Shown: positions 1,486 through 47,736 of the stretch, piece by piece | How the letters are laid out: every line of letters starts with the position of its first letter | Numbering within the stretch: the stretch's first letter is position 1 | Source of the DNA: a bacterium | GTDB lineage: Bacteria; Patescibacteriota; Minisyncoccia; Phycocordibacterales; CALRBL01 | Reading direction: 5' to 3' | DNA: 64,000 nt | NCBI GenBank assembly: GCA_027487075.1 | Contig: JAIYEG010000002.1 | Span: forward strand, 79,202 to 143,201 | The notes under the pieces: model-generated | What the model was told of the DNA's origin: nothing | Seen by the model: only the letters and a program-made list of their open reading frames with translations | Databases searched by the model: none | Made by a program: the position numbers and the translations under genes

Positions 1486-1966
1486 TGTGCAAAATTAGAT
1501 CACTTGAGGCGAGGGGGGTGTTGGTGGCACTGGTGGTGACGATTTGAATAGTGGCTCTTCGAGAATTTGTATCATTACTTCCACCTGAGGTTACGATATT
1601 CGAGCTCCCATCACGTGATACGGCGCTCATCATAAATTTAATGGCGTACTGATCTCGAAATGCTATTGGGGTGGTAGTGGTAGCATAATTAGAGCCATTC
1701 CACGTGAGGTAGTATGCTGTGCCGTTTATAAGGGGGGCTATGTTTGAGGTCCATGATCTATCCCGAATCAGCTGGAGTGCTTCGCCAGCTTCTTCGGTGA
1801 GGAGGGCGGTACGCACAGTGATGGCACTTGCCGCAGCGAGTTTGATGTATTGATTCCATGCTGCTGACGCTGCGGTGATAACCACCGTAATAATAGACGC
1901 AGCGATAAGTATTTCTACCAGTCCAAAGCCTTTATCGTGTTTTGAAAAGAGTGTGCTCATGGTCAT
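1469..1966 (-). CDS. Type IV prepilin-like protein
   Basis: N-terminus ...HDKGFGLVEILIAASIITVVI is a prepilin peptidase motif plus a TM helix. Its ATGA overlaps the upstream gene. Confidence 0.8.
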   Translation of the reverse strand: MTMSTLFSKHDKGFGLVEILIAASIITVVITAASAAWNQYIKLAAASAITVRTALLTEEAGEALQLIRDRSWTSNIAPLINGTAYYLTWNGSNYATTTTPIAFRDQYAIKFMMSAVSRDGSSNIVTSGGSNDTNSRRATIQIVTTSATNTPLASSDLILHNVYSN

Positions 1967-2409
1967 GATGAGGTAATGGCTCCTAAATCAGTGATGGTAA
2001 TTGTTTTTGAAAGACCAGATGAAGTGTCGATAAGAATGGCCGTACCTGTGGCACTCGGTGTACCGTAGATACGTGAGAAGAGCACTGAGGTGGTGCTTGA
2101 AGCGAGGTTGCCAGAGAGTCTAAACCCTTGAAGAGAAGTGATGACCGTTCTTGAATCAGCAGCATTGTACGAGGTGCCTGCAAAATATGCATAGCTTGAG
2201 GTAGAAAATCGCACACCAGCAGGGTCACCATCCTTTCCAGAAATCGCATCCGCCTTTGCTCGTTCGATGGTGGCGACAAGTCTGTCACTTGCTGTATTTA
2301 GACGAGAAGTATTTCGTGCGTGGTAGAAGCCAATACTACTAATACCGCCAATGACAAGCATGATAGCGATAACGACAAGTATTTCACCGAGTGTAAATGC
2401 GCGGTTCAC
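1963..2409 (-). CDS. Type IV pilin / pseudopilin-like protein
   Basis: N-terminus MNRAFTLGEILVVIAIMLVIGGI has an AFTLGE motif with a conserved Glu+5 and a hydrophobic helix. First gene of the minus-strand pilin operon. Confidence 0.75.
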   Translation of the reverse strand: MNRAFTLGEILVVIAIMLVIGGISSIGFYHARNTSRLNTASDRLVATIERAKADAISGKDGDPAGVRFSTSSYAYFAGTSYNAADSRTVITSLQGFRLSGNLASSTTSVLFSRIYGTPSATGTAILIDTSSGLSKTITITDLGAITSS

Positions 2410-2792
2410 AAAAATATTGTACCACTCATATCAAAAAGTGGCTGTATTGACAAAACTTATTAAGTCTGCTAATTTGCATTTAGACCTCGTGCAATGGACT
2501 TACGCACTTGAGGCGTGATGTTACATGCTGTCTCCACTACGTTACTGCCCACAACGTACGAGCGTGTCCTAGACGCTCCAGCTCGCATCACTGCTCCTGG
2601 TGTAGGTCCCGCGACCCATGCCTGCACTAGGAGCCCACTTTCAAGAACGTGTGTACGTATTGTCACAGCCCGCTTTCGAGCGTCCGCTGAAGGCATCGAT
2701 CTGAGGTATGTTCGTGTGAATTCAAGGACGAGAGCTCAATCTCCTTGCTCGCGCCGCAACCCCAAAATATTCCGAACAGCTCATCGATCGGC

Positions 2793-2825
2793 GCGCCTCC
2801 CTGGTTAGGGAGGCGCTTTTTGTAT
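2793..2825 (+). terminator. Intrinsic terminator (GCGCCTCCC-tggtta-GGGAGGCGC + T5)
   Basis: Perfect 9-bp GC stem followed by tttttgtattttt. It closes an unassigned GC-rich transcription unit upstream of rnpB. Confidence 0.55.
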
Positions 2826-2844
2826 TTTTGTGGTATTGTGTGGC

Positions 2845-3190
2845 TCTGCGCCAGACAATCGCTCTCGCTTGCGAGGGAGGAAAGTCCGAACACAGCCAGC
2901 TTCGGCTGGAGCACGTAGCGGGTAACGCCCGTCTTGTCATATTCAAAAAGGGGCAAAGAGGTGCGAGCAGTGACGCTTGAAGCGAAAGCAGAGAGCATCC
3001 ATAGCAATGTGGATGAATCCATGTGGTAACACACGGAGTGAAACGGCAAAATCCTTACGTCTGTGCAAGGCCGTGTCCCACGAAGTAATTCGTGGTGAAG
3101 TGCCGCTCGAGGGTGTCAGCGATGACACTCCCAGATAAATGATTGTCACCACAGCAATGTGGCACAGAATTCGGCTTATCGGCGCAGGAC
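2845..3190 (+). ncRNA. rnpB: RNase P RNA (bacterial type A-like)
   Basis: Conserved blocks in native order: gggaggaaagtccg (CR-I GGAGGAAAGTCCGGGC), ggtaacgcc, ggagtgaaacgg, acagaattcggcttatcgg (ACAGAANCCGGCTTA). P1 pairs ctgcgcc (2846-2852) with ggcgcag (3181-3187). An extended -10 tgGTATTGT sits just upstream. The ORFs called across this region are spurious. Confidence 0.85.
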
Positions 3191-3754: not shown

Positions 3755-6622
3755 ATGACACGTCAATACGACCCGAAAGACATTGAACCCAAGTGGCAAA
3801 AAGCGTGGGAAAAGCAGGGAATTTACGCCACCAAGGAAACCGCGGACAAGCCGAAATACTATGTACTCGACATGTTTCCGTATCCGTCTGGCGAAGGGCT
3901 TCATGTGGGGCATCCCAAGGGCTACATTGCCACCGATGTGATCTCGCGTATGAAGCGTATGCAAGGCTTCAATGTACTCCACCCGATGGGGTTTGATGCA
4001 TTCGGTCTTCCAGCCGAGCAATATGCAATCAAGATGAAGACAAACCCTGCGGTAGCAGTGGAGAAAAACGTCGCACGCTACAAGAAGCAGCTTGAAATTC
4101 TTGGTTTTGATTACGATTGGTCACGTGAAGTGAATACCACCGATCCTAAATACTATAAATGGACGCAATGGATCTTTTTAAAATTGCTTGAAAAAGGTTT
4201 AGCAGAAGAACGCTATGAACCGATCAACTGGTGTCCTGTTGATAAGACCGGGCTTGCGAATGAAGATATTGAAGATGGAAAGTGTGAGCGCTGTGGTGCA
4301 GTGGTTGAAAAGCGCCTCATGAAGCAGTGGGTGCTTAAGATTACGCAGTATGCCGATCGCCTGCTCAGTGACCTCGATGCGAAAAAAGAAGACGGCACAC
4401 CACTTCTCGATTGGCCAGAGTCAATCAAGGAAAGCCAGCGAAACTGGATTGGAAGAAGTGAGGGGGCTGAGATTGATTTTAAGTTGATCGAAGCGGGATC
4501 TAAAAATGAAATCGCATGTGCGACGGTGTTCACAACACGAGCAGACACGCTTTTTGGTGTGACGTATGTGGTACTTGCTCCTGAACACTCTCTTGTTGCT
4601 GAACTTCTTGAAAAATCTTCGAATAAAAAAGAGATTGAGGCTTACATTAGTATGACAAAGGCTAAGACTGAAATTGATCGTACTGATACAACAAAAGAAA
4701 AGACTGGAGTAGAGCTTAAGGGTGTTCGAGCTATCAACCCAGCAAATAATGAAGAAGTTCCGGTGTGGATTGCTGATTACGTACTTGCAGATTATGGAAC
4801 AGGAGCAGTAATGGCGGTACCAGCGCACGATGAGCGTGATTTTGTATTTGCAAAGAAGTTTGCATTACCTATTAAGCATGTAGTGGCTCCATATCATATA
4901 CAAGGGGGTAAACATGTGCCACGTGAAGGCATTGAAACTCTTACACGCAGAACTGTCACAGTTATTCTTGAAAACAAGAAAAATGAAGTACTTATTATTG
5001 CTGAACCGGATACCACAACTCTTCTTGGTGGAGGAATCGAAGAAGGGGAGATGCCTACAGAAACTGCACTGCGCGAAATCAAAGAAGAAACAGGATATGC
5101 TGATGTTGAGGTAAAAGAAACCATTCTTGATAACTTCTTTGCAAAAGGATACCGATATACAAAAGGTAAAAATACTTTCACAAATGACTATATCATTCAT
5201 GCTGTATTAAAAAGTGATACACAAGAGAAAAGCGAGATTGATGAAGGTCGTCACCACATAAAATGGGTACCGAAAGAAAATGTACTTAATGAAATACCTC
5301 ACACACATAGTCACTATGAAATCTTCAAGTTATTTTTAAAACCTCATCATACCGGTGATGGATTACTTGTTAATTCATGTTCATTTGATGGAAAAAATTC
5401 ATCAGACGAAGTAAGAAAGGAAATTACCAAACACGTCGGGGGCCGATGGGTGACCAAGTACAAACTCCGCGACTGGGTGTTCTCACGTCAGCGTTATTGG
5501 GGTGAGCCAATTCCTGTGGTGCATGATGAAAATGGTTTGGTGATTCCCCTCAAAGAAGAGGATCTTCCGCTTGAACTTCCAATGGTAGAGCACTATGAGC
5601 CGACTGATACGGGAGAATCTCCGCTCGCTAACATTCCTGAATGGGCAGAGTTTGAAGTCGATGGCTACAAATTTAAACGAGAGACTAATACCATGCCGCA
5701 ATGGGCGGGTTCTTCGTGGTATTACCTCCGCTATATGGATCCGCATAATGACACGACGCTCGTCGACTCTGAAAAAGAAAAATACTGGAACTCAGTAGAC
5801 CTTTATGTGGGCGGTGCAGAGCATGCAACGCGCCACCTTATCTACGCACGCTTCTGGCACAAGTTCTTGTATGACATCGGTGTGGTATCAACCCTCGAAC
5901 CATTCACCAAACTTGCAAACCAAGGGCTTATCACTGCATCAGATGGTCGCAAAATGTCGAAGCGCTGGGGTAATGTGGTGAATCCTGATGAGATGGTAGA
6001 CACCTTCGGCGCTGATTCGATGCGCCTCTACGAGATGTTCATGGGTCCATTTGACCAAGCTATCGCGTGGAATACGAATGGGGTAGTGGGAACACGTCGC
6101 TTCATCGAAAAAGTATGGAAGCTCTCATCAAAAGTGACTCACGATGCACCGTCACATCCCGCGCTGCATCGCACCATCAAAAAAGTTTCTGAGGATATTG
6201 CCGGCATGAAGTTCAACACCGCGATTTCGTCTATGATGATCTTCGTGAATGATCTTGAGAAGGCTGCCTCGGTCTCATGTGCCGATATGGAAGCATTGCT
6301 CAAACTTCTCGCGCCATTTGCTCCTCATGTTGCGGAAGAGCTCTGGGAAGTGCTTGGCAATGAAGGAAGTATTCACCTTTCATCGTGGCCGACCTTCGAT
6401 ACTTCGAAGCTCGAGGAAGATGAGGTCACTATCGCTGTGCAAATCAACGGAAAGACACGCGAAACCATGCGTGTTGCCCGCAATCTTGACGAACAGGTGG
6501 TTGTAGACATGGCAAAGGGAAGTGAGGGGCTCAAAAAATGGATCAAAGAAGGTCAGATCAAGCGGGTGATCTGGGTCAAAAACCGCCTCCTCAACCTCAT
6601 AATTGACTTATCAGCAGAATAA
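3755..6622 (+). CDS. leuS: Leucyl-tRNA synthetase carrying an in-frame Nudix hydrolase domain insertion
   Basis: HIGH-region PYPSGEGLHVGHPKGY, zinc knuckle CERCGAVVE, editing domain (TTRADTLFGVTYVVLAPEH ... AVPAHDERDFVFAKKF), KLRDWVFSRQRYWGEPIP and KMSKRWGNVV. It is 955 aa versus roughly 860 typical. An extra segment of about 150 aa between the editing domain and the LRDW motif carries a canonical Nudix box GGGIEEGEMPTETALREIKEETGY. Confidence 0.95.
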   Translation: MTRQYDPKDIEPKWQKAWEKQGIYATKETADKPKYYVLDMFPYPSGEGLHVGHPKGYIATDVISRMKRMQGFNVLHPMGFDAFGLPAEQYAIKMKTNPAVAVEKNVARYKKQLEILGFDYDWSREVNTTDPKYYKWTQWIFLKLLEKGLAEERYEPINWCPVDKTGLANEDIEDGKCERCGAVVEKRLMKQWVLKITQYADRLLSDLDAKKEDGTPLLDWPESIKESQRNWIGRSEGAEIDFKLIEAGSKNEIACATVFTTRADTLFGVTYVVLAPEHSLVAELLEKSSNKKEIEAYISMTKAKTEIDRTDTTKEKTGVELKGVRAINPANNEEVPVWIADYVLADYGTGAVMAVPAHDERDFVFAKKFALPIKHVVAPYHIQGGKHVPREGIETLTRRTVTVILENKKNEVLIIAEPDTTTLLGGGIEEGEMPTETALREIKEETGYADVEVKETILDNFFAKGYRYTKGKNTFTNDYIIHAVLKSDTQEKSEIDEGRHHIKWVPKENVLNEIPHTHSHYEIFKLFLKPHHTGDGLLVNSCSFDGKNSSDEVRKEITKHVGGRWVTKYKLRDWVFSRQRYWGEPIPVVHDENGLVIPLKEEDLPLELPMVEHYEPTDTGESPLANIPEWAEFEVDGYKFKRETNTMPQWAGSSWYYLRYMDPHNDTTLVDSEKEKYWNSVDLYVGGAEHATRHLIYARFWHKFLYDIGVVSTLEPFTKLANQGLITASDGRKMSKRWGNVVNPDEMVDTFGADSMRLYEMFMGPFDQAIAWNTNGVVGTRRFIEKVWKLSSKVTHDAPSHPALHRTIKKVSEDIAGMKFNTAISSMMIFVNDLEKAASVSCADMEALLKLLAPFAPHVAEELWEVLGNEGSIHLSSWPTFDTSKLEEDEVTIAVQINGKTRETMRVARNLDEQVVVDMAKGSEGLKKWIKEGQIKRVIWVKNRLLNLIIDLSAE

Positions 6623-15588: not shown

Positions 15589-17367
15589 ATGACCTCAGCC
15601 GAAATACGCAAGCGATTCATATCATTTTTCGAGAAACGCGGGCACGCCGTGCTTCCTTCGGCATCACTCGTACCTGAAAATGACCCATCAGTACTCTTCA
15701 ATACTGCCGGAATGCAACCGCTCGTACCATACCTTCTCGGCGAAAAGCACCCGCTCGGCACACGTCTCGTGAACTTCCAGAAATGCGTGCGCACAGGCGA
15801 CATCGATGATATTGGCGACAACACACACGCTACCTTCTTCGAAATGATGGGGAACTGGTCGCTCGGCGATTACTTCAAGGAAGACGCTATCAAATGGAGC
15901 TACGAGCTCCTCACTTCAAAAGATGAAGGATTCGGCCTCGATCCACATCGCCTCTACGTGACGGTATTTGAAGGTAACGAAGATGCGCCTCGCGATGATG
16001 AGGCTGCGGCAATCTGGAAAAAATATCTTCCTGAAAACCGCATCTACTACCGACCGGCAGACAAGAATTGGTGGAGCGCGGGTGATAACGGCCCATGCGG
16101 ACCTGACACCGAAATGTTTTACGACGTTACGGGAACGCTCGGCGACATGACGCTTGAAGAGTATCTCAAAGCTGATGATGAGCAGAAAGTTGTTGAGATC
16201 TGGAACGACGTATTCATGGAATACCTCAAGAAAGACGGAAAGGTAGTAGGGAAGCTTGCCAACAAGAACGTGGATACAGGATCAGGATTCGAGCGCATCA
16301 CGATGGTGCTCCAGGGAAAGGATAATATCTTCGACACCGACCTTTTCCTGCCGATCATCAACAAGATCAAGGAATTTACCTCCGTCGATACGACCACCAA
16401 AGAATCTATCCGAGCAATGCGTATTATCGCTGACCATCTTCGCGCTACAACATTTCTTATCGGTGACGGCGTGCTTCCTGGTAATAAGGATCAGGGATAC
16501 ATCCTCCGACGTCTTCTACGACGCGCTGTTCGCTATGCGGATACACTCAACATGAAGCACGGTAGTCTGTTTTGGATTGCAGATACCATTGTGACTGAAT
16601 ACAAGGATGCATATCCGATGCTTATCACCCAGAAGGAGCATATTAAGAGTGAGATAGATAAAGAAGAGCAAAAGTTTCGCTCAACTCTTGCTAAAGGCAT
16701 GAAAGAATTCGAACGTATGGCAACGAGTAGTATTTCGGGTGATGATGCCTTTCTTTTGCTTTCAAGCTATGGATTTCCTATTGATCTCACCAAAGAATTA
16801 GCAAAGGAACGAGGTCTAACGGTAGATGAAAAAGGATTTGAAGAGGCATTCAAAAAGCACCAAGACCTCTCACGCTCAGGATCTGAACAGAAGTTCAAAG
16901 GAGGGCTTTCGGGGACTGGAGAAATGGAAACCCGCTACCACACAGCAACCCATCTTCTCAATGCCGCACTCCGCGAAGTGCTTGGAAATCACATCTCACA
17001 AAAGGGAAGCAACATCACTGCAGAGCGCATGCGCTTCGACTTCTCGCACGGCGCAAAAATGACTGATGAAGAAAAGAAGAAAGTGGAAGTTCTTGTGAAT
17101 CAGAAGATCGATGAAGCGCATCCTGTGACATTCAAAGAGATGCCGAAAGAAGAAGCAGAGCGTATCGGAGCAATCCATGCATTTGGAGACAAGTATGGTG
17201 ACATCGTAAAAGTATATTCGATCGGCAATGAGACCGATGGCTACTTCAGTCGTGAATTCTGTGGAGGTCCGCACGTGGCAAACACGAAAGAGCTCGGCCA
17301 CTTCAAGATCGTGAAGGAAGAAGCAGTCTCTCAAAGCGTGCGACGAATAAAAGCTGTGTTAGAATAG
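15589..17367 (+). CDS. alaS: Alanyl-tRNA synthetase, short form lacking the C-Ala domain
   Basis: N-terminus FISFFEKRGHAVLPSASLVPENDPSVLFNTAGM. Editing-domain HxxxH (RYHTATHLLNAALREVLGNH) and CGGPH are present. Only 592 aa. Confidence 0.9.
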   Translation: MTSAEIRKRFISFFEKRGHAVLPSASLVPENDPSVLFNTAGMQPLVPYLLGEKHPLGTRLVNFQKCVRTGDIDDIGDNTHATFFEMMGNWSLGDYFKEDAIKWSYELLTSKDEGFGLDPHRLYVTVFEGNEDAPRDDEAAAIWKKYLPENRIYYRPADKNWWSAGDNGPCGPDTEMFYDVTGTLGDMTLEEYLKADDEQKVVEIWNDVFMEYLKKDGKVVGKLANKNVDTGSGFERITMVLQGKDNIFDTDLFLPIINKIKEFTSVDTTTKESIRAMRIIADHLRATTFLIGDGVLPGNKDQGYILRRLLRRAVRYADTLNMKHGSLFWIADTIVTEYKDAYPMLITQKEHIKSEIDKEEQKFRSTLAKGMKEFERMATSSISGDDAFLLLSSYGFPIDLTKELAKERGLTVDEKGFEEAFKKHQDLSRSGSEQKFKGGLSGTGEMETRYHTATHLLNAALREVLGNHISQKGSNITAERMRFDFSHGAKMTDEEKKKVEVLVNQKIDEAHPVTFKEMPKEEAERIGAIHAFGDKYGDIVKVYSIGNETDGYFSREFCGGPHVANTKELGHFKIVKEEAVSQSVRRIKAVLE

Positions 17368-34170: not shown

Positions 34171-35397
34171 ATGTTAGACACACTATTCAACCGCATTTCA
34201 GCCGACTGGCGAGGCATGCCTCCAGAAGAATTGTTGGGATATATTCGACCAAAGTGTCAGGAAATTTTGCCTTTAGAGCAACTCAAAACCCTCCTTGCAT
34301 CAGGTGCAAAACTCAAAATCAAGCTCGGCGTCGACGCCACAGGATCAGATCTCCATATTGGCCACATCGTGCCACTCATGCTCCTTCGCCAATTCCAGAA
34401 AGCAGGGCACCACATCGACTTCATCATCGGTGACTTCACCGCAACCATTGGCGATCCATCTGGCCGTGAAAGCGAACGCAAGGCACTCACCGCATCTGAA
34501 GTGAAGAAGAATGCAAAAGGCTTCACCGCACAGATCAAGCCATACCTCGACACGCGCAAAGCAAACGTGCACTTCAATTCAAAGTGGCTCTCGAAGATGA
34601 AGATGTCTGACATGATTAGCTACCTCCAACATGTGAGCATGTCATCAGCAACGCAGCGAGAAGACTTCCGCAAGCGCTTGACTGCGGGAAATTCGGTGAG
34701 TCTCGCCGAGACAATCTACGGCTTTCTCATGGGGCTTGATTCGCTCCACCTCAAGAGCAACATCGAAGTCGGCGCTATCGACCAACTCATCAACTTTCAG
34801 CAGTGCCGAGAGCTCATGTCATCACAGGGTATAACTCCTGAAACCGTACTCTGCGTAGCACTCATCGAGGGAACAGATGGTTCGGGAAGAAAGATGTCAA
34901 AGTCGGTCGGCAACACTATCAATCTGAATGCATCATTCGAAGACAAGTTCGGCAAAGTCATGAGCATTCCCGACAAGCTCATCTTGCCGTGGTATATCGC
35001 ATTCACCGACGTGCACGAGAATGAGATCGAACTCTTGAAGAAAGCTATTGAAGCAGATCCGCTCGAGATGAAGAAGCAGCTCGGCATGCTTCTCATTGCA
35101 CTTGAAACGAAGAGCCTGAAAGAAGGACAAATAGAGCGAGAGAAGTTCGAGCGAAAGTTCACGAAGAAAGAGCTGAGCGATGATGACTTTGTGGAAGTGA
35201 AAGCTGAAGCGCACCACACCCTTTTTGACGCACTCGTTCCACACTTTGAAAGCAAGAGTGAACTCCGACGACTGTTTGAACAAGGAGCAGTGAAGCATGC
35301 TGATACTGAGCATGTGCTTACGATAGATTCAACGATTCAGAACAATATGAAGGTGAGGGTGGGGAAGAGGGGGTTTTTTAGGATAATTAACTACTAA
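34171..35397 (+). CDS. tyrS: Tyrosyl-tRNA synthetase
   Basis: HIGH as DLHIGHIV, IGDFTATIGDPSGRESER, KMSKSVGN and a C-terminal S4-like domain. Confidence 0.9.
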   Translation: MLDTLFNRISADWRGMPPEELLGYIRPKCQEILPLEQLKTLLASGAKLKIKLGVDATGSDLHIGHIVPLMLLRQFQKAGHHIDFIIGDFTATIGDPSGRESERKALTASEVKKNAKGFTAQIKPYLDTRKANVHFNSKWLSKMKMSDMISYLQHVSMSSATQREDFRKRLTAGNSVSLAETIYGFLMGLDSLHLKSNIEVGAIDQLINFQQCRELMSSQGITPETVLCVALIEGTDGSGRKMSKSVGNTINLNASFEDKFGKVMSIPDKLILPWYIAFTDVHENEIELLKKAIEADPLEMKKQLGMLLIALETKSLKEGQIEREKFERKFTKKELSDDDFVEVKAEAHHTLFDALVPHFESKSELRRLFEQGAVKHADTEHVLTIDSTIQNNMKVRVGKRGFFRIINY

Positions 35398-36480
35398 ATG
35401 AAGCTTTTTTCTAAAAGAAACAAACCAATATCAAATCATGGATTTGCTTATAGACCGAATAGATTTCATGAAGTTAGCACTATTGGCAACAGATACAGAC
35501 TAGTTTCTAAAGAAACTAGGAATAGAATGGTTTCTGAAATAAAGTTCTTAACATCTAGTGATGATTTTCTAGAGTGGTTTATTTTATTTGAAAATGAAGA
35601 TAAAGGAAAAATTTTTTTTGATAAAAATAAAATTGATAAATTTTCATTATCTGAATTAGGTTACAAAATGTCTGATTTTTTCGATTTTGAAGATTTTGCA
35701 ATGTTAAAACAACGACAAAAACCTGATGATCCCGAAACAGAGTATTTAGACGATTACAAACTTTTTGATATAGCGGAAATTACAATACTATTTTCATTGG
35801 ATAATAAAAGAAGTGCAGTTATAGATAGATTCAATTCTATATTCATTGAAGAGGACACTGATTTTCAAATAATAGAACATCTTATCACCCGTAAATCTGG
35901 TGACAGTATAAAAACATTGCTAAATTTGTTAAAAGACGAAAATTTAAAAAAGAAATTAAAAATGTTTTTTGAATCGTACGATAACTACGATTTTATTAAT
36001 TCTGCTAAAACATCGGCTGATATTCTTAATATTATATTTTCGGATTATATAAAAAATGAGAAATCAAAAAAGATTTCTGAATTATGTAACAAATTAGCTG
36101 ATAAGATTGTAGTGTCAGATACCAAAGGAGATAAGAGAAAAAGATTCCTTGAGTACATGAACGATTTACTTAAGTTATCTAAAAACTTAAGTAATGATAT
36201 CTATGATGTTCGTCATACTGAAAAATCAACAATAATACTTTCTAATGAAAATATCTATAAGTTAATTTCGAATCAAAACATATCTTTAGTTGAGCTAGTA
36301 TTAACCACATTGAAAGATGACTATGTTCTTGGAGATAACTGGGAAAAAATTAAAGACGATTACATTACGAAATATAATATTAATAAATTATCAAGACAAG
36401 TAATTAAAAAGAGAGTTATTCCTACAATTTTAAAAAGCAACGTGGATGACGAGATCGATCCGGATGACATTCCATTTTAA
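35398..36480 (+). CDS. Hypothetical protein, extremely AT-rich, start-stop coupled to tyrS
   Basis: Its ATG directly abuts the tyrS TAA. 360 aa, Lys/Asp/Phe/Ile-rich, no motif recognised. Composition is sharply different from tyrS and ABC-F. Confidence 0.55.
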   Translation: MKLFSKRNKPISNHGFAYRPNRFHEVSTIGNRYRLVSKETRNRMVSEIKFLTSSDDFLEWFILFENEDKGKIFFDKNKIDKFSLSELGYKMSDFFDFEDFAMLKQRQKPDDPETEYLDDYKLFDIAEITILFSLDNKRSAVIDRFNSIFIEEDTDFQIIEHLITRKSGDSIKTLLNLLKDENLKKKLKMFFESYDNYDFINSAKTSADILNIIFSDYIKNEKSKKISELCNKLADKIVVSDTKGDKRKRFLEYMNDLLKLSKNLSNDIYDVRHTEKSTIILSNENIYKLISNQNISLVELVLTTLKDDYVLGDNWEKIKDDYITKYNINKLSRQVIKKRVIPTILKSNVDDEIDPDDIPF

Positions 36481-38091: not shown

Positions 38092-38120
38092 CCCCGCCCG
38101 CAAGGGCGGGGAATTTTATT
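38092..38120 (+). terminator. Intrinsic terminator (CCCCGCCC-gcaa-GGGCGGGG + aattttattt)
   Basis: Perfect 8-bp GC stem, GNRA loop and a T-run on the plus strand only. Overlaps the 3' end of the minus-strand toxin gene. Confidence 0.65.
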
Positions 38121-38505
38121 TATATAAGGAATGAAACTGTGCTTTTACTTTTTTAAAATCATTTCCATCAACTTGACCGAGGCGAGTAAAAAGTCTTCTG
38201 TAATCTATAGTTCGCACCCGGTGTAAACAAACCTTCATTTCTGTATTATCTAAAATTAATGGTACATACCATGATCCTTCTTTTATCTGAGTAGTCGTAG
38301 GCGCAACCAAGTAGAAACCACGAGCTAATTTCTTAAGAATCAAACCAGGTCTTGTATAAACAGAGCTTTTACCATTAATTTCAGAACCAATATTTTGACC
38401 AAAACTTATCCACCATATATCCCTTTCACTGACCAACGGAGGAGAAGCTTCGACTGAATGCAGTTTTACCTTTACTGCTATCCACTTTAAAAACACATCA
38501 ATCAT
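38116..38505 (-). CDS. MazF/PemK-family endoribonuclease toxin-like protein with no adjacent antitoxin gene
   Basis: ...ERDIWWISFGQNIGSEINGKSSVYTRPGLILKK...FYLVAPTTTQIKEGSWYVPLILDN...KVCLHRVRTIDYRRL matches the PemK/MazF pattern (RPxLVL, PxTS/T, IRTID.RRL). AT-rich. There is no upstream ORF on the same strand. Confidence 0.7.
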   Translation of the reverse strand: MIDVFLKWIAVKVKLHSVEASPPLVSERDIWWISFGQNIGSEINGKSSVYTRPGLILKKLARGFYLVAPTTTQIKEGSWYVPLILDNTEMKVCLHRVRTIDYRRLFTRLGQVDGNDFKKVKAQFHSLYK

Positions 38506-40165: not shown

Positions 40166-40621
40166 ATGACATCAACACACGAATTACCATCAGAATTATA
40201 CGGGGTTGAAAAGTGGAAGAAGATGGCTCTTGATAATGAGCTCATTTCTCAAGAAGAGGCGACACAGATTGAATCAACGAAGGATCTAGGAATACTCGCG
40301 AAACATCATGCAGAGTTACTCAAAAGCAAGTTGCATGAATCTCCGTTTTTTGCTATCGGCTCAGGTGAACAAATGGAACTTTCATTTGAAAGAAGTCAGT
40401 TACTTGATTTTCGCTTCAAGACAATCTTTGGATATTCTCAAGCTGAATTTTATCTGCAACTTGATACGGTTATTGAGAATCTAGGTAAAGTTACTTCAAA
40501 TGAAGAAGTGAGCGAAGAAACATCAGGGAATTATTTTCTCATTATCCTTCGCACCCTTTACGACATTGCAAAGAAAGTTGCAGAAACTCACGAACACGGA
40601 TACGAGACACCCCAAGCTTAA
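40166..40621 (+). CDS. Hypothetical protein (AT-rich), 3 nt upstream of trpS
   Basis: 151-aa ORF with no motif. Confidence 0.4.
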   Translation: MTSTHELPSELYGVEKWKKMALDNELISQEEATQIESTKDLGILAKHHAELLKSKLHESPFFAIGSGEQMELSFERSQLLDFRFKTIFGYSQAEFYLQLDTVIENLGKVTSNEEVSEETSGNYFLIILRTLYDIAKKVAETHEHGYETPQA

Positions 40622-40624
40622 CCT

Positions 40625-41569
40625 ATGCAGAAAACCCTCCTTTCAGGTGTAAAACCAACAGGACGACCACACATTGGCAACTATTTCGGTGCCATGAAGC
40701 AATTTGTGGATCTTCAACATGACTACAAAACATACGTCATGATTGCTGATTATCATGCGCTCATATCGACTCATAACAAAGAGCAGCTTCACCAAGATCT
40801 CCTCGATCTCATGATTGACTACCTTGCAATTGGTCTTGACCCTGAGAAGTGTGTCATCTTCAAACAATCTGATGTATCAGAGCACACCGAGCTTGCGTGG
40901 ATTTTCAACTGTTTGACCACTATGCCATATCTCATGCGTGCACACGCCTACAAAGATGCAGAAGCAAAAGGAAAAGAGGTGAATGTAGGACTCTTCGGAT
41001 ATCCTGTACTTATGGGGGCAGACATCCTTTTGTATGATGTCGACACCGTACCTATCGGTATCGACAACAAGCAACACCTCGAAATCGCACGAGAACTCGC
41101 ACGAAAATTCAACACCACCTTCACTGAGGTCTTCAAAGAACCTACCGAAGCGATTGTTCCTGAGGTTGCCACCGTCCCCGGCATCGACGGACAAAAAATG
41201 TCAAAGAGCTACAACAACACCATTCCGCTTTTTGCATCCGATGAAGAGATAAAGAAGCAAGTGATGGCAATTGTGACCGACTCAGGCTCAGACATTCCAA
41301 AAAATGTGTATGCCATCCACGCACTCATCAAACCAAAAGAGGAGCTCGACGCACTCTACGAAGCCAACAAAGGCAAGTACAAAGTCCTCAAGGACGCACT
41401 CATCGACGACCTCATCGCATTCATCGCACCACTTCGTGAAAAACGCAAAGCATGGGAGAATAGAATCGACGACGTAAAAGAGATACTCCGAAAAGGTGGC
41501 GAAGAAGCCAAAAAGACCGCATCAGAAAAGATGAAGAAAGTGAGGGAAGCAATCGGAGTGACGTTGTAG
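40625..41569 (+). CDS. trpS: Tryptophanyl-tRNA synthetase
   Basis: SGVKPTGRPHIGNYFGA (HIGH-like), IADYHALI and KMSKS (DGQKMSKSYNN). Confidence 0.9.
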   Translation: MQKTLLSGVKPTGRPHIGNYFGAMKQFVDLQHDYKTYVMIADYHALISTHNKEQLHQDLLDLMIDYLAIGLDPEKCVIFKQSDVSEHTELAWIFNCLTTMPYLMRAHAYKDAEAKGKEVNVGLFGYPVLMGADILLYDVDTVPIGIDNKQHLEIARELARKFNTTFTEVFKEPTEAIVPEVATVPGIDGQKMSKSYNNTIPLFASDEEIKKQVMAIVTDSGSDIPKNVYAIHALIKPKEELDALYEANKGKYKVLKDALIDDLIAFIAPLREKRKAWENRIDDVKEILRKGGEEAKKTASEKMKKVREAIGVTL

Positions 41570-41575
41570 TTACAT

Positions 41576-43366
41576 ATGCAAAAAGTAACAGACGTTCTTA
41601 TCAATGCCAAGCGGCTCAATGCAATCTTGTGGAAGAACCGCAAGAGCTTTTTGCTATTCTCTATCGTATTCTCCATCATCAGTGCCCTCATTCCGTATGC
41701 AACATCGGGAGTGAACGCACTTCTCGTCAATCATCTCACTACGACTGCGGGGGCGGGCATTTCAGATACACTTCTCGTCCTCGCTCTCACCTCAGCCATC
41801 CTTTTCTTCATCCCAGACATCGTCAGCTCAATCAATACATGGGTAGAAAAACGCATTTGGGTCGACATCGGCCAAATCATTCAACTTCAGTACCTCAAGA
41901 AAAAGGGAGAGATTGATATTCAAACCTACGAAGACCCTAAATTTCTTGATACGCTCAACAAAGCAGAAGATCGTGGTGTGTGGCCGACCACAAACTTTCT
42001 TAGCCTTCAATTCAACGCATTCGGCAATATCATTGGCCTCATCACAGGACTTGGGATTCTCTTGTTCTTCAACTGGATGATCTGTCTTCTCATCATTATT
42101 GCTATCATTCCTCAATTTATCGTGGAGATTAAGTTCAACAACGACACATGGGGAATTTGGAATGCAGATGCTGCAACCCGCCGAAGATTCAATAATCTGC
42201 GTGATCATTTCGAACAAAAGAATTGGCTCATTGAGCTCAAACTCTTCCAGAATGTACACCTATTCTACACACAAATCAAAGAGATTCTCATTTCATTTAA
42301 TGACAAACAACGAAACATCGAGCGTACCAAACTTTTCTTTGAAATTGGTTCGACCATACTAAGTGGAGCAATCATCGGTGGTGTCATCATCTGGGTAGTC
42401 CTCAATGTTGCTAAGGGGGACTCAAGTATTGGCGCTCTTTTGTTTCTCATGACTTCTATTAGCCAACTTCAAGGTTCACTCATCGCATTCCTCAGCCGTC
42501 TTGCACGTCTTCACGAATACAGCTTGTATTGTGCAGACATATTTAAGGTACTCAGTACTTCACCCGCACTTCCGCGTGCTCAGCATCCTGTCACCCTCAC
42601 GGGAGAAACTCCTGAAATCATCTTTGAGAACGTCTCATTCGCATATCCCTCAAGCCCTGAAAAGCTCACGCTCGAACACATTTCACTCACCATTCGCAAA
42701 GGAGAGAAATTTGCGCTGGTAGGAGAAAACGGTGCAGGGAAGACCACCTTCGTGAAGCTTTTGTGCCGTATCTACGATCCCACCGAGGGACGTATTCTCG
42801 TCGATGGTGTTGACCTTCGCAAAATCGACCTCGAGAGCTGGTACAAGACCTTGGGAATTTTGTTCCAAGAATATGCGCCGTATAAGTTTGCAGTGAAGGA
42901 CTCCATTGCACTTGGTCGTTCAGATGACCCCTTCGACTTTGAGCGTATTCAAAATGCTGCACTTGCCAGTGAGTCTGATAGCTTTATCCAACAGTGGCCA
43001 CAGAAGTACGATCAACAGCTTGGCACAGAGTTTGATCAAGGAATCGACCCATCAAAAGGTCAACAACAACGTCTTGCTATTGCTCGCCTCATGCACCGCA
43101 AAGCAGGAGTGCTTATTCTTGATGAGCCGACCGCTGCTATCGACGCAGAAGCAGAGAAGAAGATTTTTGACCAAATCGAACGAGAGGCGAAGAACCAGAC
43201 CGTCATTCTTATTTCTCACAAGTTTTCAACGGTAAAGAACGCAGATCGTATCTGCGTATTCAAAGGAAAGACCGTGCATGAGATGGGTTCACACGAGGAA
43301 TTGCTTCGTAAGAAAGGGACGTATGCGAGGTTGTTTAGTGAGCAAGCGGAGGCGTATACTATCTAA
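41576..43366 (+). CDS. ABC exporter, fused TMD-NBD (MsbA/type I exporter-like)
   Basis: Six-TM N-terminal domain, Walker A GENGAGKTT, signature LSKGQQQRLAIAR, Walker B LILDEPTAAID. Confidence 0.85.
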   Translation: MQKVTDVLINAKRLNAILWKNRKSFLLFSIVFSIISALIPYATSGVNALLVNHLTTTAGAGISDTLLVLALTSAILFFIPDIVSSINTWVEKRIWVDIGQIIQLQYLKKKGEIDIQTYEDPKFLDTLNKAEDRGVWPTTNFLSLQFNAFGNIIGLITGLGILLFFNWMICLLIIIAIIPQFIVEIKFNNDTWGIWNADAATRRRFNNLRDHFEQKNWLIELKLFQNVHLFYTQIKEILISFNDKQRNIERTKLFFEIGSTILSGAIIGGVIIWVVLNVAKGDSSIGALLFLMTSISQLQGSLIAFLSRLARLHEYSLYCADIFKVLSTSPALPRAQHPVTLTGETPEIIFENVSFAYPSSPEKLTLEHISLTIRKGEKFALVGENGAGKTTFVKLLCRIYDPTEGRILVDGVDLRKIDLESWYKTLGILFQEYAPYKFAVKDSIALGRSDDPFDFERIQNAALASESDSFIQQWPQKYDQQLGTEFDQGIDPSKGQQQRLAIARLMHRKAGVLILDEPTAAIDAEAEKKIFDQIEREAKNQTVILISHKFSTVKNADRICVFKGKTVHEMGSHEELLRKKGTYARLFSEQAEAYTI

Positions 43367-43367
43367 T

Positions 43368-44960
43368 ATGAAAACTGGAAAGGCTGAATCACTCGAACAA
43401 ATGAAGAAAGCCGGTTTCAATGTGCCTGATTTTTTTATTGTTGAGCAGAGGCCAACCAAAGAAACAAGTGACACATTTCTCGCCAAGTTTGACGCGCTTA
43501 AGACCAAAAGTGTTGCAGTACGATCTTCAACAAATGTTGAAGATGGGGAACATAATTCTTGGGCAGGGCAGTTCACTTCACACTTGAATGTGGCAAAAGA
43601 AAATCTTATTGAGAAAATAAATAGTTGTTTTGATTCAGTTCATACAACAAACGTTACATCATATAAAAATTCATTTGGTATAGAGAAGGAGATTAGTATG
43701 AATGTTATCGTTCAAAAAATGATTCATGCTGACTATGCAGGTGTAGCATTTTCAGTAAATCCGATAACTAAAAAATCTGATGTTTTAATTGAAGTTGTTA
43801 AAGGTACTGGTGAATCACTAGTTTCTGGCAAAGTAACCCCCCAAACATATCACATTGATAAGACAACTAAACAAATTGATATTGTTAGTAGTGATTCTTC
43901 AGATACCCTAAATTCATTTCCGATTTTACAACTATTTGAAATTATTTTAAAAATAGAATCATTTTATAACTTTCCGTGTGACATTGAATGGGCATACGAA
44001 AAAGATACTTTTTATATTCTCCAATGTCGCCCTATAACAACTATTAAGGACACTGACTTAATCGAAAGTTATATTGCAACACAAAGAATGATCTCACTCG
44101 GTACCCGAGGCCCTGATACACTTGAAGCAAAACTTAAAATAATGGGATGGTCAACAAATTTTAAGAAGGAGTTTGGGGTTGGTTACCGTACCATAGTTAT
44201 CAATTCTGAAGGTAAGCAATACGGTGATTTTGAGAGTCTTGAAAAGATTGATTTCTTTTTTGATAACAGGGATATTTCTTTTGCAAAAAAGTACATCAAG
44301 AAAATGTCAGATTTAAATAGCGACCTGAATGATAAAATATTAAGATTTCCTGATGAAGAATTTATTGAAGAACTTTCTTATCTTTTTACCTACTTTAGCG
44401 CAATTCGTTGGACAATAGAAAATGTTTACAAAAAATCTTCAGCAGAAGATAAAAAATTAATTGATGATTGGAGAAACGACGAAACTATATTTTCGTCACT
44501 GGAGTTATATGGAAAAGTTCACCCTCTTTCTGATCCAGATTCTTGGAGTGTAGTGGGAATCGATGACCAGATCACCATCTTACCAAAAGTAATTAACTGC
44601 GCCATTAAAAGTGAGGCATCCTCTTCTCATGAAATTAAGGGTCAGACAGCTTATCCCGGTATAATTTCTGGCACAGCAAGAGTTGCACTAACGGACGAAA
44701 TTAGAGATTCGATTAAAGAGGGAGATATTATTGTAGCACCGATGACAACGCTCGATTTTACCCACGCCATGTCAATTGCAGCAGGCTTTGTTACTGATGA
44801 AGGTGGAATTACCTGCCATGCGGCTATAGTTGCGAGAGAATTGAAGAAACCTTGCATCATTGGAACACGTAACGGTACTCAAATAATTAAGGATGGTGAC
44901 ATTGTTGAGCTTGATGCAACTAACGGAATTGTGAGAATACTTAATGTACCGGAAGCATAG
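43368..44960 (+). CDS. PEP-utilising phosphotransferase (PPDK_N ATP-grasp N-terminus plus PEP-utilisers swivel-His C-terminus, Rph/PEP-synthase-like architecture)
   Basis: N-terminus ...VAVRSSTNVEDGEHNSWAGQFTSHLNV...GVAFSVNPITKKSDVLIEVVKGTGESLVSGKVTP. C-terminus ...GGITCHAAIVARELKKPCIIGTRNG. An AT-rich middle domain of about 250 aa is unknown. The ATG is 2 nt after the ABC exporter stop. The ORF-track start at 43278 is over-extended. Confidence 0.7.
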   Translation: MKTGKAESLEQMKKAGFNVPDFFIVEQRPTKETSDTFLAKFDALKTKSVAVRSSTNVEDGEHNSWAGQFTSHLNVAKENLIEKINSCFDSVHTTNVTSYKNSFGIEKEISMNVIVQKMIHADYAGVAFSVNPITKKSDVLIEVVKGTGESLVSGKVTPQTYHIDKTTKQIDIVSSDSSDTLNSFPILQLFEIILKIESFYNFPCDIEWAYEKDTFYILQCRPITTIKDTDLIESYIATQRMISLGTRGPDTLEAKLKIMGWSTNFKKEFGVGYRTIVINSEGKQYGDFESLEKIDFFFDNRDISFAKKYIKKMSDLNSDLNDKILRFPDEEFIEELSYLFTYFSAIRWTIENVYKKSSAEDKKLIDDWRNDETIFSSLELYGKVHPLSDPDSWSVVGIDDQITILPKVINCAIKSEASSSHEIKGQTAYPGIISGTARVALTDEIRDSIKEGDIIVAPMTTLDFTHAMSIAAGFVTDEGGITCHAAIVARELKKPCIIGTRNGTQIIKDGDIVELDATNGIVRILNVPEA

Positions 44961-45009
44961 CATACTTGACCTCTGTAAGCAAATGTGACCTTTTTACGTC
45001 TATCGTTAT

Positions 45010-45915
45010 ATGCTTACCATAACAAAGATACCAAGAGGAAATGAGGGACACGAAGTAATTGAGTGTTTTTTGAAAACAAAAAAGGTAAGCTCTATCTTCT
45101 TTTGTTCTCCCTTTACAATTCAAACATGGCTAAATACTGAGATAAAAGAGCTTTACCTTGCGAGTTTTAGAAATGAAAAGATACTTTTGGTCTATGACAT
45201 TAAAAGAAAGAAAGATGTGCGCTTCTTGCTTGAATATCCATCCGATGAATTTATGAGAAGCGTCATCGAATACTTCGATGCAAAGTATATTGGAGTTAAT
45301 GAGCTTCATCATATTCCACCCCACATTGAAAATCCCCATGATCAATGTGACGATTATTTAGTTGATGTTGCTACTGTTGAAGGAATGTTCGATGGGATGG
45401 TACGTAGAGAATATAACAGATGTGTGAGACGACACCCAAGAATCTTTTTCAAAGAAGTTGAAAACAGCGATAGAGTCGCTATAAAATTGTTTCTTGAAAA
45501 ATGGCTTTATACCCGTACTGACGAACAGAATAAATTCTCTCGTATTTCGAATGAACTCTATTTTATTGATTCTTATCTTGATAATCCCCAAGCATATGGT
45601 GGTGTAGTTTATGATGGCGATCAGATTGTGGCACTTACTTTTTTTGTGCAATCGATGATAGAGGGTGTAGCTCTTTCAACCACCAGCAAAGTGTTAAGGG
45701 GCTATACAAAGCTAGGAACATATCTTTCCGTGGAACAGGCAAAAATGTTAAAGAAAAAAGGATTCAATAAGGTAAATATCGGGAAAATGAATAACGAATT
45801 TAAGAGAAAATTCTTGCTAAATGCCACCCCTCTCAGTATATACGCTTACGAAGCGTGGATTAAGGAGGGCTGGAAATTTACTTCGAATTTTCTTCAGAGA
45901 GGACTTATCATGTAA
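45010..45915 (+). CDS. Hypothetical protein (AT-rich)
   Basis: 301-aa ORF with no confident motif. Composition matches the neighbouring phosphotransferase gene. Confidence 0.45.
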   Translation: MLTITKIPRGNEGHEVIECFLKTKKVSSIFFCSPFTIQTWLNTEIKELYLASFRNEKILLVYDIKRKKDVRFLLEYPSDEFMRSVIEYFDAKYIGVNELHHIPPHIENPHDQCDDYLVDVATVEGMFDGMVRREYNRCVRRHPRIFFKEVENSDRVAIKLFLEKWLYTRTDEQNKFSRISNELYFIDSYLDNPQAYGGVVYDGDQIVALTFFVQSMIEGVALSTTSKVLRGYTKLGTYLSVEQAKMLKKKGFNKVNIGKMNNEFKRKFLLNATPLSIYAYEAWIKEGWKFTSNFLQRGLIM

Positions 45916-46320
45916 ATAAAACACATCACCAAAAGGGATAGTGAATACAAGCGACTATATGAACTTCAGATTGGTTTGCATGAGTAAAAAAATTGACAAA
46001 CCCTTGATACTTTCTTCGGATGTACTTGAGCCCTTTTCTTTATTATAGTGAGTATTATCATTAGCATATATTCGCCATGACCACTACAACTGAACAAGTA
46101 CTGATCAAGGAAATCCGCACCATGACATTAACAGCCTCAAGAGCGATGTGTCGGACATCCGATCTGGTATACACACACTTAATGCACAGAAAGAACAGCA
46201 TTTCACCGACATCATGTCGACTCTCCAGCATGGTGGCACCTTCTTCCAAGATCATGAGGGTCGGATCACTGTTCTCGAAGAATCTCGCCCCTAAGCCCTT
46301 TTTCTGCTATATTCAGGGCT

Positions 46321-47736
46321 ATGAACAACGATACACGTACGTACATAAAAGACCTCAGTGGCAAGGTGGGGAATGAAGTCACCATCAAGGGATGGGTGGA
46401 TATTCGTCGCGACCAAGGAAAACTTATTTTCCTCGATTTTCGTGACATGACGGGCAAGGTGCAGGGAGTGATTCTCCCTAATGCAAAAGAAGCGCACGAA
46501 GTGGGTACTCAGCTCCGCTCTGAATGGGTGGTAGAAGTGAAGGGGAAGGTAAATCCTCGTCCAGAAAAAAACGTGCAGAAGGACAAGCTCAACGGCGACA
46601 TCGAGCTCGAAATTCTTTCGATCACCATTTTGAACCAGGCAGAAACTCCAGGATTCGACATCGGAAACGATACCCGTGTCGTCAACGAAGACACTCGCCT
46701 CGAACAACGCTACCTCGATCTCCGCAGTGAACGTCTTCAAAACAACATTCGCGCTCGCCACAAAGCCATCAAGCTCGTACGTGATGTACTCGACACAGAA
46801 GGCTTCATCGAAATTGAGACCCCACTCCTCACCAAATCAACTCCTGAAGGTGCCCGCGACTTCATCGTGCCGTCACGCCTCGAACGTGGCACCTTCTACG
46901 CACTTCCTCAGTCACCGCAGCAGTACAAGCAGCTCCTCATGGCTGCTGGCATGGAAAAATATTTCCAGATCGCACGTTGCATGCGTGATGAAGACACGCG
47001 TGGAGACCGTCAGCCAGAGTTTACTCAGCTCGATATGGAGATGAGCTTCGTGCGCGAAGACGACATTATGGCGTTGAACGAAAAACTCCTCATCGAGCTC
47101 GTCACCAAGCTTTATCCTCACAAGAAAATCCAAGAAATCCCATTCCCACGCATTTCATACAAGGACGCTATGGAAAAGTACGGCAATGACCGCCCTGACA
47201 TCCGTACCAACAAAGAAGATCCGAACTTGCTCGCATTCTGCTGGGTGGTAGATTTCCCGATGTTCGAAAAGAACGACCAAGGAGGCTGGACTTTCACCCA
47301 CAATCCGTTCTCAGCAACTCAAAAAGACCACGAGGAGGCTCTCATGAATGCAAAAGCAGATGACGCCAACCTCACCCACATTAAAGCTGCACAGTACGAC
47401 ATCGTCCTCAACGGCTATGAGATCGGTGGCGGGAGCGTGCGCAATCACGACCCTGAAAAACTCCTCAAGGTATTTGAGATTATGGGATACGAGCGCTCAA
47501 ACGTTGAACAGAACTTTGGTCACATGCTCAAAGCTTTTCGTTCAGGAACACCACCACACGGGGGTATTGCATGGGGTTTTGACCGCCTCATGATGCTCCT
47601 TCAGAACGAGCCAAACATCCGCGAAGTGATCGCATTTCCTAAAACAGGGGAGGGTCGTGATCCGATGATGAAGAGTCCTGATACTGTTTCTGAGGCGCAG
47701 CTTCGAGAGCTCGGTATTGACATAAAGCAAAAATAA
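46321..47736 (+). CDS. aspS: Aspartyl-tRNA synthetase (bacterial type, no GAD insertion domain)
   Basis: OB-fold N-terminus, motif 2 FQIARCMRDEDTRGDRQPEFTQLDMEMSF, motif 3 GGIAWGFDRLMMLL. 471 aa. Confidence 0.9.
   Translation: MNNDTRTYIKDLSGKVGNEVTIKGWVDIRRDQGKLIFLDFRDMTGKVQGVILPNAKEAHEVGTQLRSEWVVEVKGKVNPRPEKNVQKDKLNGDIELEILSITILNQAETPGFDIGNDTRVVNEDTRLEQRYLDLRSERLQNNIRARHKAIKLVRDVLDTEGFIEIETPLLTKSTPEGARDFIVPSRLERGTFYALPQSPQQYKQLLMAAGMEKYFQIARCMRDEDTRGDRQPEFTQLDMEMSFVREDDIMALNEKLLIELVTKLYPHKKIQEIPFPRISYKDAMEKYGNDRPDIRTNKEDPNLLAFCWVVDFPMFEKNDQGGWTFTHNPFSATQKDHEEALMNAKADDANLTHIKAAQYDIVLNGYEIGGGSVRNHDPEKLLKVFEIMGYERSNVEQNFGHMLKAFRSGTPPHGGIAWGFDRLMMLLQNEPNIREVIAFPKTGEGRDPMMKSPDTVSEAQLRELGIDIKQK

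Follow-up and report, generated by a model that had tools for sequence, protein, structure and literature searches.

What brought a gene for an ATP-binding cassette (ABC) exporter and a gene for a histidine-swivel dikinase to within one nucleotide (nt) of each other, and do the two products work together? We examined this question in a stretch of 64,000 nt from a bacterium of the Patescibacteriota (contig JAIYEG010000002.1, positions 79,202 to 143,201 of the forward strand), hereafter the window. The preliminary description of the locus had read it as a phosphorylate-and-export module. We favour, with moderate confidence, a different account, in which an AT-rich foreign cassette, made up of the dikinase gene and an open reading frame (ORF) without recognized relatives (the ORFan g301), replaced a second exporter gene. 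Because such a replacement would have placed the dikinase where it now stands, its adjacency to the exporter would be positional, not functional, and exporter and dikinase probably do not function together. The features concerned are the following.

41576-43366 (+): ABC exporter half-transporter of 596 amino acids (aa), recognized by PF00005, of native base composition
43364-43370 (+): exporter-dikinase junction, read directly from the letters, with a 1-nt gap
43368-45920 (+): putative AT-rich foreign cassette of ~2.55 kb, comprising the truncated dikinase gene and g301, delimited by GC contrast, with its right edge set by the remnant
43368-44960 (+): three-domain His-swivel dikinase of 530 aa, recognized by PF01326, PF00391 and an AlphaFold2 (AF2) model
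43368-44051 (+): ATP-grasp domain of the dikinase, residues 1-228, N-terminally truncated and diverged, matching PF01326 from profile position 99
44052-44615 (+): small middle domain (SMD) of the dikinase, residues 229-416, presumed to bind the acceptor, with no known relative
44616-44957 (+): linker and swivel phosphohistidine domain of the dikinase, residues 417-530 (PF00391)
45010-45915 (+): g301, a 301-aa ORFan of ~36% GC, in the same AT-rich block as the dikinase
45937-45987 (+): 16 codons (DSEYKRLYELQIGLHE) and a stop, left from the 3' end of a second ABC exporter gene and recognized by their match to locus L092

As the preliminary description had noticed, the dikinase gene is much richer in AT than the exporter gene, with a GC content of 35.5% (27% at third codon positions, GC3) against 45.4% (GC3 49%). 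That description had also called the middle domain AT-rich. The AT-richness is gene-wide, with a GC3 of 24-29% in each of the three domains, and spans the next gene as well. The two cassette genes have a GC content of 35.5% and 36.1%, compared with 45-51% in the flanking genes (46-50% for those of the tryptophanyl- and aspartyl-tRNA synthetases, TrpRS and AspRS). A search of 5.8 billion proteins with g301 returned g301 alone. Its one Pfam match was weak and below threshold (LPG_synthase_C, E 0.0026), and NCBIfam, PADLOC, PHROGs and the PDB yielded nothing.

At the far edge of the AT-rich block lies what appears to be the end of another exporter gene. A metagenome scan for relatives of the window's exporter gave one useful locus, L092, which carries the closest orthologue (67% identity) on a contig that ends ~150 nt past the gene. 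In L092 this orthologue is preceded by a second exporter gene with the canonical signature LSVGQ, and is followed by an AT-rich spacer and the start of an unrelated ORF. The C-terminus of the second L092 exporter, NGEYRRLYELQIGLHD up to its stop, agrees with DSEYKRLYELQIGLHE in the window at 12 of 16 residues, while the best match in 30 shuffled windows reached 6-8 of 16. At the DNA level, the differences from L092 fall mostly at third codon positions. The remnant shares the reading frame of g301, whose stop is seven codons before it. Since an exporter remnant marks the far edge of the block, the dikinase gene would have arrived by replacing an exporter gene. We found no direct or inverted repeats flanking the cassette. 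The ~330 nt between the remnant and AspRS (45988-46320) are non-coding, unusually long for this genome, and include TTGACA at 45993-45998; a 99-aa ORF at 46077-46376 overlaps the AspRS start.

The surviving exporter has the organization of an ABC half-transporter, with an N-terminal membrane part of about six helices and a C-terminal ATP-binding domain. Pfam detected ABC_tran (PF00005, E 2.8e-29), and scanning the window copy gave no match to ABC_membrane; hydropathy and motif reading located approximately six hydrophobic segments, a Walker A motif (GENGAGKT) and a Walker B motif (VLILDE). Matches to MsbA-like NCBIfam models were all far under their cut-offs (232.4 versus 602 bits for TIGR02203, MsbA). 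On its motifs and scores we class the protein as an exporter-type ABC protein, with no substrate assigned by family, and not as MsbA. Its signature motif is degenerate. In place of LSGGQ, the subfamily has PSKGQ in the window and in the L092 orthologue (1258-3048), and PSQGQ in L085 (5197-6993). Degenerate signature motifs are typical of heterodimeric exporters, so that the motif fits a former heterodimer, and the surviving exporter was probably one member of a tandem pair. As in heterodimeric tandem exporters, the PSKGQ protein has in L092 an LSVGQ partner, and a remnant of such a partner gene lies 2.6 kb downstream in the window; unlike in those systems, the partner gene of the window has been destroyed.

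The relatives of the dikinase bear on the origin of the cassette. Among the matches listed, the closest homologues share 50-57% identity with the window protein; their loci have a GC content of 36-39%, and the dikinase gene does not differ there in composition from the DNA around it. The dikinases of L041 and L006, the loci whose housekeeping genes are nearest to those of the window among the matches listed, are 32-33% identical and carry no SMD; the window's own genome was not among the matches listed in our GTDB scan for homologues. These comparisons, which paralogy could confound, point to a transfer of the dikinase gene from a low-GC Patescibacteria lineage. A defence-island or phage origin of the cassette was rejected, with no PADLOC matches and no close phage or IMG/VR relatives.

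A second foreign-looking gene is butted onto a housekeeping gene elsewhere in the window, in the same pattern as the dikinase cassette. This gene (35398-36480, +; 360 aa) has a GC content of 26.5% (GC3 22%) and is still AT-richer than the dikinase gene. Its ATG abuts the stop of a class-I tRNA synthetase gene (34171-35397, probably TyrRS) with a gap of 0 nt, and its product had no match in Pfam, NCBIfam, PADLOC or PHROGs.

Direct reading of the junction (...ACT ATC TAA t ATG AAA...) agreed with the 1-nt spacing given in the preliminary description, with the exporter TAA at 43364-43366 and the dikinase ATG at 43368-43370. The sequence GGAGG lies at 43348-43352, 15 nt 5' of this ATG. A gap of 1 nt is ordinary for a compact genome, and tight packing is the rule in the window: in a simple gene set, same-strand neighbours are a median of 12 nt apart, and 13 of 42 such pairs have at most 1 nt between them. 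The same-strand run at 40166-44960 consists of an unknown gene, TrpRS, the exporter and the dikinase, with gaps of 3, 6 and 1 nt. Dikinase genes of relatives are also packed, lying 1 nt from DnaJ in L090 and 18 nt after SecA in L084. Scanning for promoters and terminators revealed no terminator between exporter and dikinase, and the signals of the locus were no better than background. The Rfam scan of the window returned RNase P RNA alone, away from the locus, and no second copy or remnant of the dikinase was found in the window.

To compare gene neighbourhoods we examined ~96 homologue loci, of which ~90 are independent. Exporter and dikinase were not kept together: at just one of the ~90 independent loci (L085/L086) does the dikinase adjoin an exporter whose membrane domain is related, and no dikinase follows the closest exporter orthologue within the ~150 nt to the end of the L092 contig. 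In other close relatives the dikinase is flanked by SecA, DnaKJ, pyruvate kinase and an APH-like kinase, or hypothetical proteins. L088 (6887-10949) perhaps hints at a role in metabolism, for its dikinase has a short pyruvate kinase (351 aa) on one side and an APH-family kinase on the other.

The recurrent partner of the family is a ~295-aa protein of the histidine-phosphatase superfamily, found beside or between dikinase genes at eight independent loci (L016, L020, L021, L031, L072, L077, L082 and L085-L087, several with tandem dikinase arrays). It carries an RH motif, and His_Phos_1 was detected in seven of the eight members (best E 3.3e-8). This superfamily includes phosphohistidine phosphatases such as SixA. 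Residues R25, H26, R80 and H209 (L082 numbering) are invariant in the partner, and one copy in L020 is fused to an extra C-terminal domain of ~360 aa. Pairing of dikinase and phosphatase thus recurs in the wider dikinase family, which is a new observation. The phosphatase is absent from the window, where the unrelated g301 stands in its place. A derivation of g301 as a diverged copy of the phosphatase that lies downstream in relatives was considered and rejected, as the two show no similarity.

The dikinase itself has a three-part architecture with a catalytic His and ATP-site residues, as found in small-molecule dikinases related to rifampin phosphotransferase (RPH). Pfam placed PF01326 at residues 45-228 (E 1.5e-46) and PF00391 at residues 449-520 (E 8e-25), confirming the PPDK_N N-terminus and the C-terminal swivel-His domain that had been read from the letters earlier; there was no Pfam match to PEP-utilizers_C (PF02896). 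The chain stops 10 residues past the His domain, and the following ORF is unrelated. For the AF2 model of the full protein (pLDDT 89) the best fold match was Listeria RPH (5hv1, E 8.7e-27), followed by pyruvate phosphate dikinase (PPDK) and HpeI. Sequence matches in the PDB were phosphoenolpyruvate (PEP) synthases and Listeria RPH, solely via the ATP-grasp and His domains. Homologues number in the thousands among the matches listed; those with names come mostly from Patescibacteria and DPANN archaea and are labelled 'PEP/pyruvate-binding domain-containing protein'.

Catalytic positions are retained. In a 29-sequence alignment they are included in the 54 invariant columns, which by construction are shared with the window protein. 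The equivalents kept are K5 (Lys22 of PPDK and RPH), R52 (the Arg of VAVRSS), D205/E207 and Q219/R221; K22 and R337 of PPDK are known catalytic positions, with 1jde and 2dik in the PDB as mutants there. Direct translation gives the motif TDEGGITCHAAIVA at 44793-44834, 46 residues from the C-terminus, with codons for the catalytic His484 at 44817-44819 and for Thr482 at 44811-44813. By domain order and fold the protein belongs to the RPH-like superfamily, and the corresponding chemistry is probable.

Comparison with known enzymes narrows the assignment. With PEP synthase and PPDK the window protein shares homologous ATP-grasp and swivel-His domains (E 3.9e-50 to the PEP synthase 8a8e) and the equivalents of PPDK K22, R92, D321/E323 and Q335/R337, but it lacks the TIM barrel, and its His domain is C-terminal instead of central. 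A plain truncated PEP synthase with a TIM domain and uniform composition, which the preliminary description had named as the case that would overturn its proposal, is not what we found. A truncated PEP synthase was rejected because the TIM-barrel domain is absent: PF02896 is not detected, and TIGR01418 (224.2 versus 739.75 bits) and NF005057 (234.9 versus 598 bits) match in three separate stretches of the protein. A real PEP synthase/PPDK of 808 aa lies beside enolase in L084, the same locus as one of the family members. The prodigiosin ligases PigC, RedH and HapC have ATP-grasp and swivel-His domains in common with the window protein (NF052631, E 2.2e-59) and differ in their length of ~880 aa and their substrate domain (score 201 versus a cut-off of 1300). 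PRK05878 of NCBIfam, presumably the Rv1127c/VadK-type model, matches just the His-domain region (E 8.5e-29, below cut-off).

VadK (Rv1127c) of Mycobacterium tuberculosis is likewise PPDK-derived and diverged from a central-metabolic role, which makes it a precedent for regulatory functions, but it has no equivalent of the SMD (PMC13400623). The two-component phenolic dikinases HpeHI, PpsAB and CreHI belong to the same superfamily, and close relatives of the window protein are similarly split into ATP-grasp and 'middle + His' proteins (L085, L096). The window protein, in contrast, is a single chain without an aromatic-catabolism context, and while the acceptor domain of HpeH is reported to be homologous to the rifampin-binding domain (PMC12167813), its middle domain is not. 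RPH from Listeria (RPH-Lm, 5HV1/5FBS; PMC4844700) has the same order of N-terminal ATP-grasp, central acceptor domain and C-terminal swivel-His GGxT(S/C)H, and the same conversion of ATP to AMP, Pi and a phospho-product would be expected. Equivalents of RPH Lys22 and Arg117 (K5, R52) are present, and GGxT(S/C)HAA lies within ~50 residues of the C-terminus. The middle domain, however, has 188 aa compared with 428 aa in RPH, with no match in fold or sequence. RPH membership was rejected, with an NF041857 score of 169.8 against a cut-off of 999 bits and a middle domain that is not rifampin-binding. Of the Rph/PEP-synthase-like architecture proposed earlier, the domain order and the RPH-type fold stand; membership of either enzyme class does not.

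The middle domain sets this protein apart. Earlier put at about 250 aa, it measures 188 aa by structure (229-416), or 220 aa between the Pfam boundaries. It is modelled with high confidence as a compact alpha/beta and helical domain. Comparison with the rifampin-binding domain, the PEP/pyruvate barrel and solved structures gave no related fold, and in a fold search its helical part resembled generic three-helix bundles such as those of spectrin and PhoU. R247, N279/S280, W368/R369 and W393 form a conserved polar cluster. From sequence and model together, the SMD is a distinct, undescribed module, belonging to a rare subfamily of Patescibacteria dikinases. When its alignment was used in a local hmmsearch, 49 of 139 fetched proteins proved to contain the domain, in five arrangements that cover single-chain, split and double-module forms. 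It occurs with ATP-grasp and His domains in one chain; as 'middle + His' alone, with either a free-standing ATP-grasp protein or a complete dikinase as its neighbour (L085, L096); flanking, on one side or the other, a larger second middle module in proteins of ~820 aa; and in a 996-aa protein with two acceptor/His units. In L096 (1403-4435) the stand-alone 'SMD + His' gene lies directly 5' of a full 681-aa dikinase, and the 996-aa protein (P0122) is fused in the order ATP-grasp, small middle, His, large middle, His. These two forms suggest that one ATP-grasp domain can charge two swivel modules. To judge from the split and double-module architectures, several acceptor/His modules could share a single ATP-grasp domain.

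Positions ~65-120 of the SMD profile, a long helix pair, also gave secondary matches to the ATP-grasp helical insert of many homologues (residues ~58-114 of P0003, P0006, P0011, P0013, P0016 and others), a segment that is absent from the window dikinase. Such matches may reflect either a distant duplication or noise from helix bias.

RPH-like dikinases form a large superfamily with few known substrates (rifamycins, phenolics and prodigiosin precursors), and a compact 188-aa acceptor module without a structural relative offers a defined target for substrate discovery, in ultra-small bacteria of poorly understood metabolism. We tentatively suggest, as a rather unlikely extension, that the SMD marks a new dikinase class confined to Patescibacteria, with an acceptor site not seen before, whose phosphorylation of a metabolite or protein would cycle with the histidine-phosphatase partner. 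The cassette may have been kept because it gives a new activity to a cell that lost half of a heterodimeric exporter.

The ATP-grasp domain is the part of the protein that departs most from its relatives. The chain begins at the GGKGA motif, here TGKAE, without the ~16 N-terminal residues and the ~55-aa helical insert of most homologues; two other family members, P0005 and P0036, also lack the insert. Extending the frame upstream yields overlap with the 3' end of the exporter alone, with no homology seen. Counted by leave-one-out, the window protein departs from the conserved residue at 23 of 85 ATP-grasp positions, whereas homologues typically do so at 0-8 (maximum 16); its counts for the middle domain (2 of 20) and His domain (3 of 36) are like those of homologues. 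The ATP-grasp domain would be either relaxed or specialized, and enzyme activity cannot be assumed.

If the enzyme is active, homology predicts that ATP would be bound by the ATP-grasp domain, His484 would take the beta-phosphate, and the gamma-phosphate would leave as Pi. The swivel domain would then ferry the phosphate to the SMD, where the putative acceptor may be held by the cluster of R247, N279/S280, W368/R369 and W393, for a predicted net reaction of ATP + X + H2O to AMP + Pi + X-P; RPH-type dikinases convert ATP and acceptor to AMP, Pi and phospho-acceptor in this way, via a swivelling phospho-His (PMC4844700, PMC12167813). As for the history of the locus, the gene would be a recent arrival from a low-GC Patescibacteria lineage, carried in an AT-rich cassette with the ORFan g301. 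The cassette would have overwritten nearly all of a second ABC half-transporter gene, which had ended at 45987, and the dikinase would have lost its own N-terminus during the replacement, so that it now starts one base past the exporter stop. As the last gene of the run at 40166-44960 it may be co-transcribed with the genes upstream. We speculate that the ATG at 43368 was perhaps inherited from the displaced gene, which would account at once for the truncation of the dikinase and for the stop-start junction.

Other explanations have to be weighed against replacement. A phosphorylate-and-export module, in which a metabolite, peptide or antibiotic would leave the cell through a translationally coupled exporter once phosphorylated by the dikinase, would account for the same-strand stop-start gap of 1 nt, and the 35%-identical exporter beside the split dikinase in L085/L086 speaks for it. 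However, no related exporter adjoins the dikinase in the other ~90 independent loci, and L092 has no dikinase after its exporter within ~150 nt. The gap is of ordinary size, the compositional histories of the two genes differ, and the dikinase sits in place of a destroyed exporter gene, in a family whose recurrent partner is a phosphatase and not a transporter. We regard such a module, the proposal of the preliminary description, as very improbable. Resistance to rifamycin or another antibiotic is scarcely credible. RPH is the top structural match, and in-silico screening has reported rph-like genes in genomes of the candidate phyla radiation (PMC8651080), but the rifampin-binding domain is absent, with 188 versus 428 aa and 169.8 versus 999 bits for NF041857. 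A regulatory role like that of VadK, with the swivel His phosphorylated and the middle domain docking a protein partner, seems improbable. VadK provides the precedent, as it autophosphorylates and binds metabolic enzymes (PMC13400623); the similarity of the helical part of the SMD to three-helix bundles (spectrin, PhoU) and a family partner of the histidine-phosphatase superfamily are in keeping with this role. Yet the invariant Arg, Asn and Trp cluster in the compact SMD looks more like a ligand site, and characterized enzymes of this domain order act on small molecules (PMC4844700, PMC12167813).

The dikinase might, alternatively, be a decaying passenger, a barely functional or non-functional remnant of a transferred enzyme that is losing its ATP-grasp domain. 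The missing N-terminal strand and helical insert and the 23 of 85 changed ATP-grasp positions fit such decay, as do the absence of the usual phosphatase partner from the window and the ORFan neighbour. On the other hand, an intact 530-codon ORF at 35% GC has a chance of ~1e-17 by a rough base-composition estimate, all invariant catalytic residues are kept, and the middle and His domains show no loss of conservation relative to homologues. P0005 and P0036 likewise lack the helical insert, and an identical copy of the dikinase was found in a second sequencing run. We consider decay unlikely, though it deserves some weight.

Replacement by a foreign cassette also has observations against it. Even the closest dikinase homologue is 53-57% identical, too distant for the donor to be among the sampled genomes. 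The second exporter gene of L092 precedes the orthologue, whereas in the window the remnant lies downstream of the exporter; either the ancestral order of the exporters differed or the remnant derives from a paralogue. At L085/L086 an exporter does adjoin the dikinase, which may indicate a weak functional link; this exporter shares 35% identity with that of the window over its whole length and 24% over the membrane domain, lies on the opposite strand in divergent orientation, and its neighbour is a two-component dikinase, 56% identical to the window protein in the C-terminal half. Finally, the truncated and eroded ATP-grasp domain leaves continued enzyme activity doubtful. Replacement remains our favoured explanation. 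It implies that, in a compact genome, a gene replacement can leave a stop-start arrangement that mimics coupling and is not to be read as functional linkage; the locus would also illustrate how genes pass horizontally between Patescibacteria lineages that differ in GC content.

The rest of the window is rich in translation genes. It holds at least seven tRNA-synthetase genes, among them those for Leu, Ala, probable Tyr, Trp, Asp and a Glu/Gln-type enzyme, with asparagine synthase nearby. Several of the synthetases are shortened, among them three on the + strand: AspRS (471 aa, 46321-47736), TrpRS (314 aa, 40625-41569) and AlaRS (592 aa, 15589-17367). AspRS aligns with the bacterial model in two separate pieces, an indication that its insertion domain is missing. 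A PemK/MazF-type toxin gene (38116-38505, -; 129 aa, 35% GC) lies between an ABC-F gene and an HI0933-like flavoprotein gene. In the leucyl-tRNA synthetase (3755-6622, +; 955 aa), the editing domain is closely followed by a NUDIX domain (PF00293, E 8.8e-16), which occupies residues 397-526.

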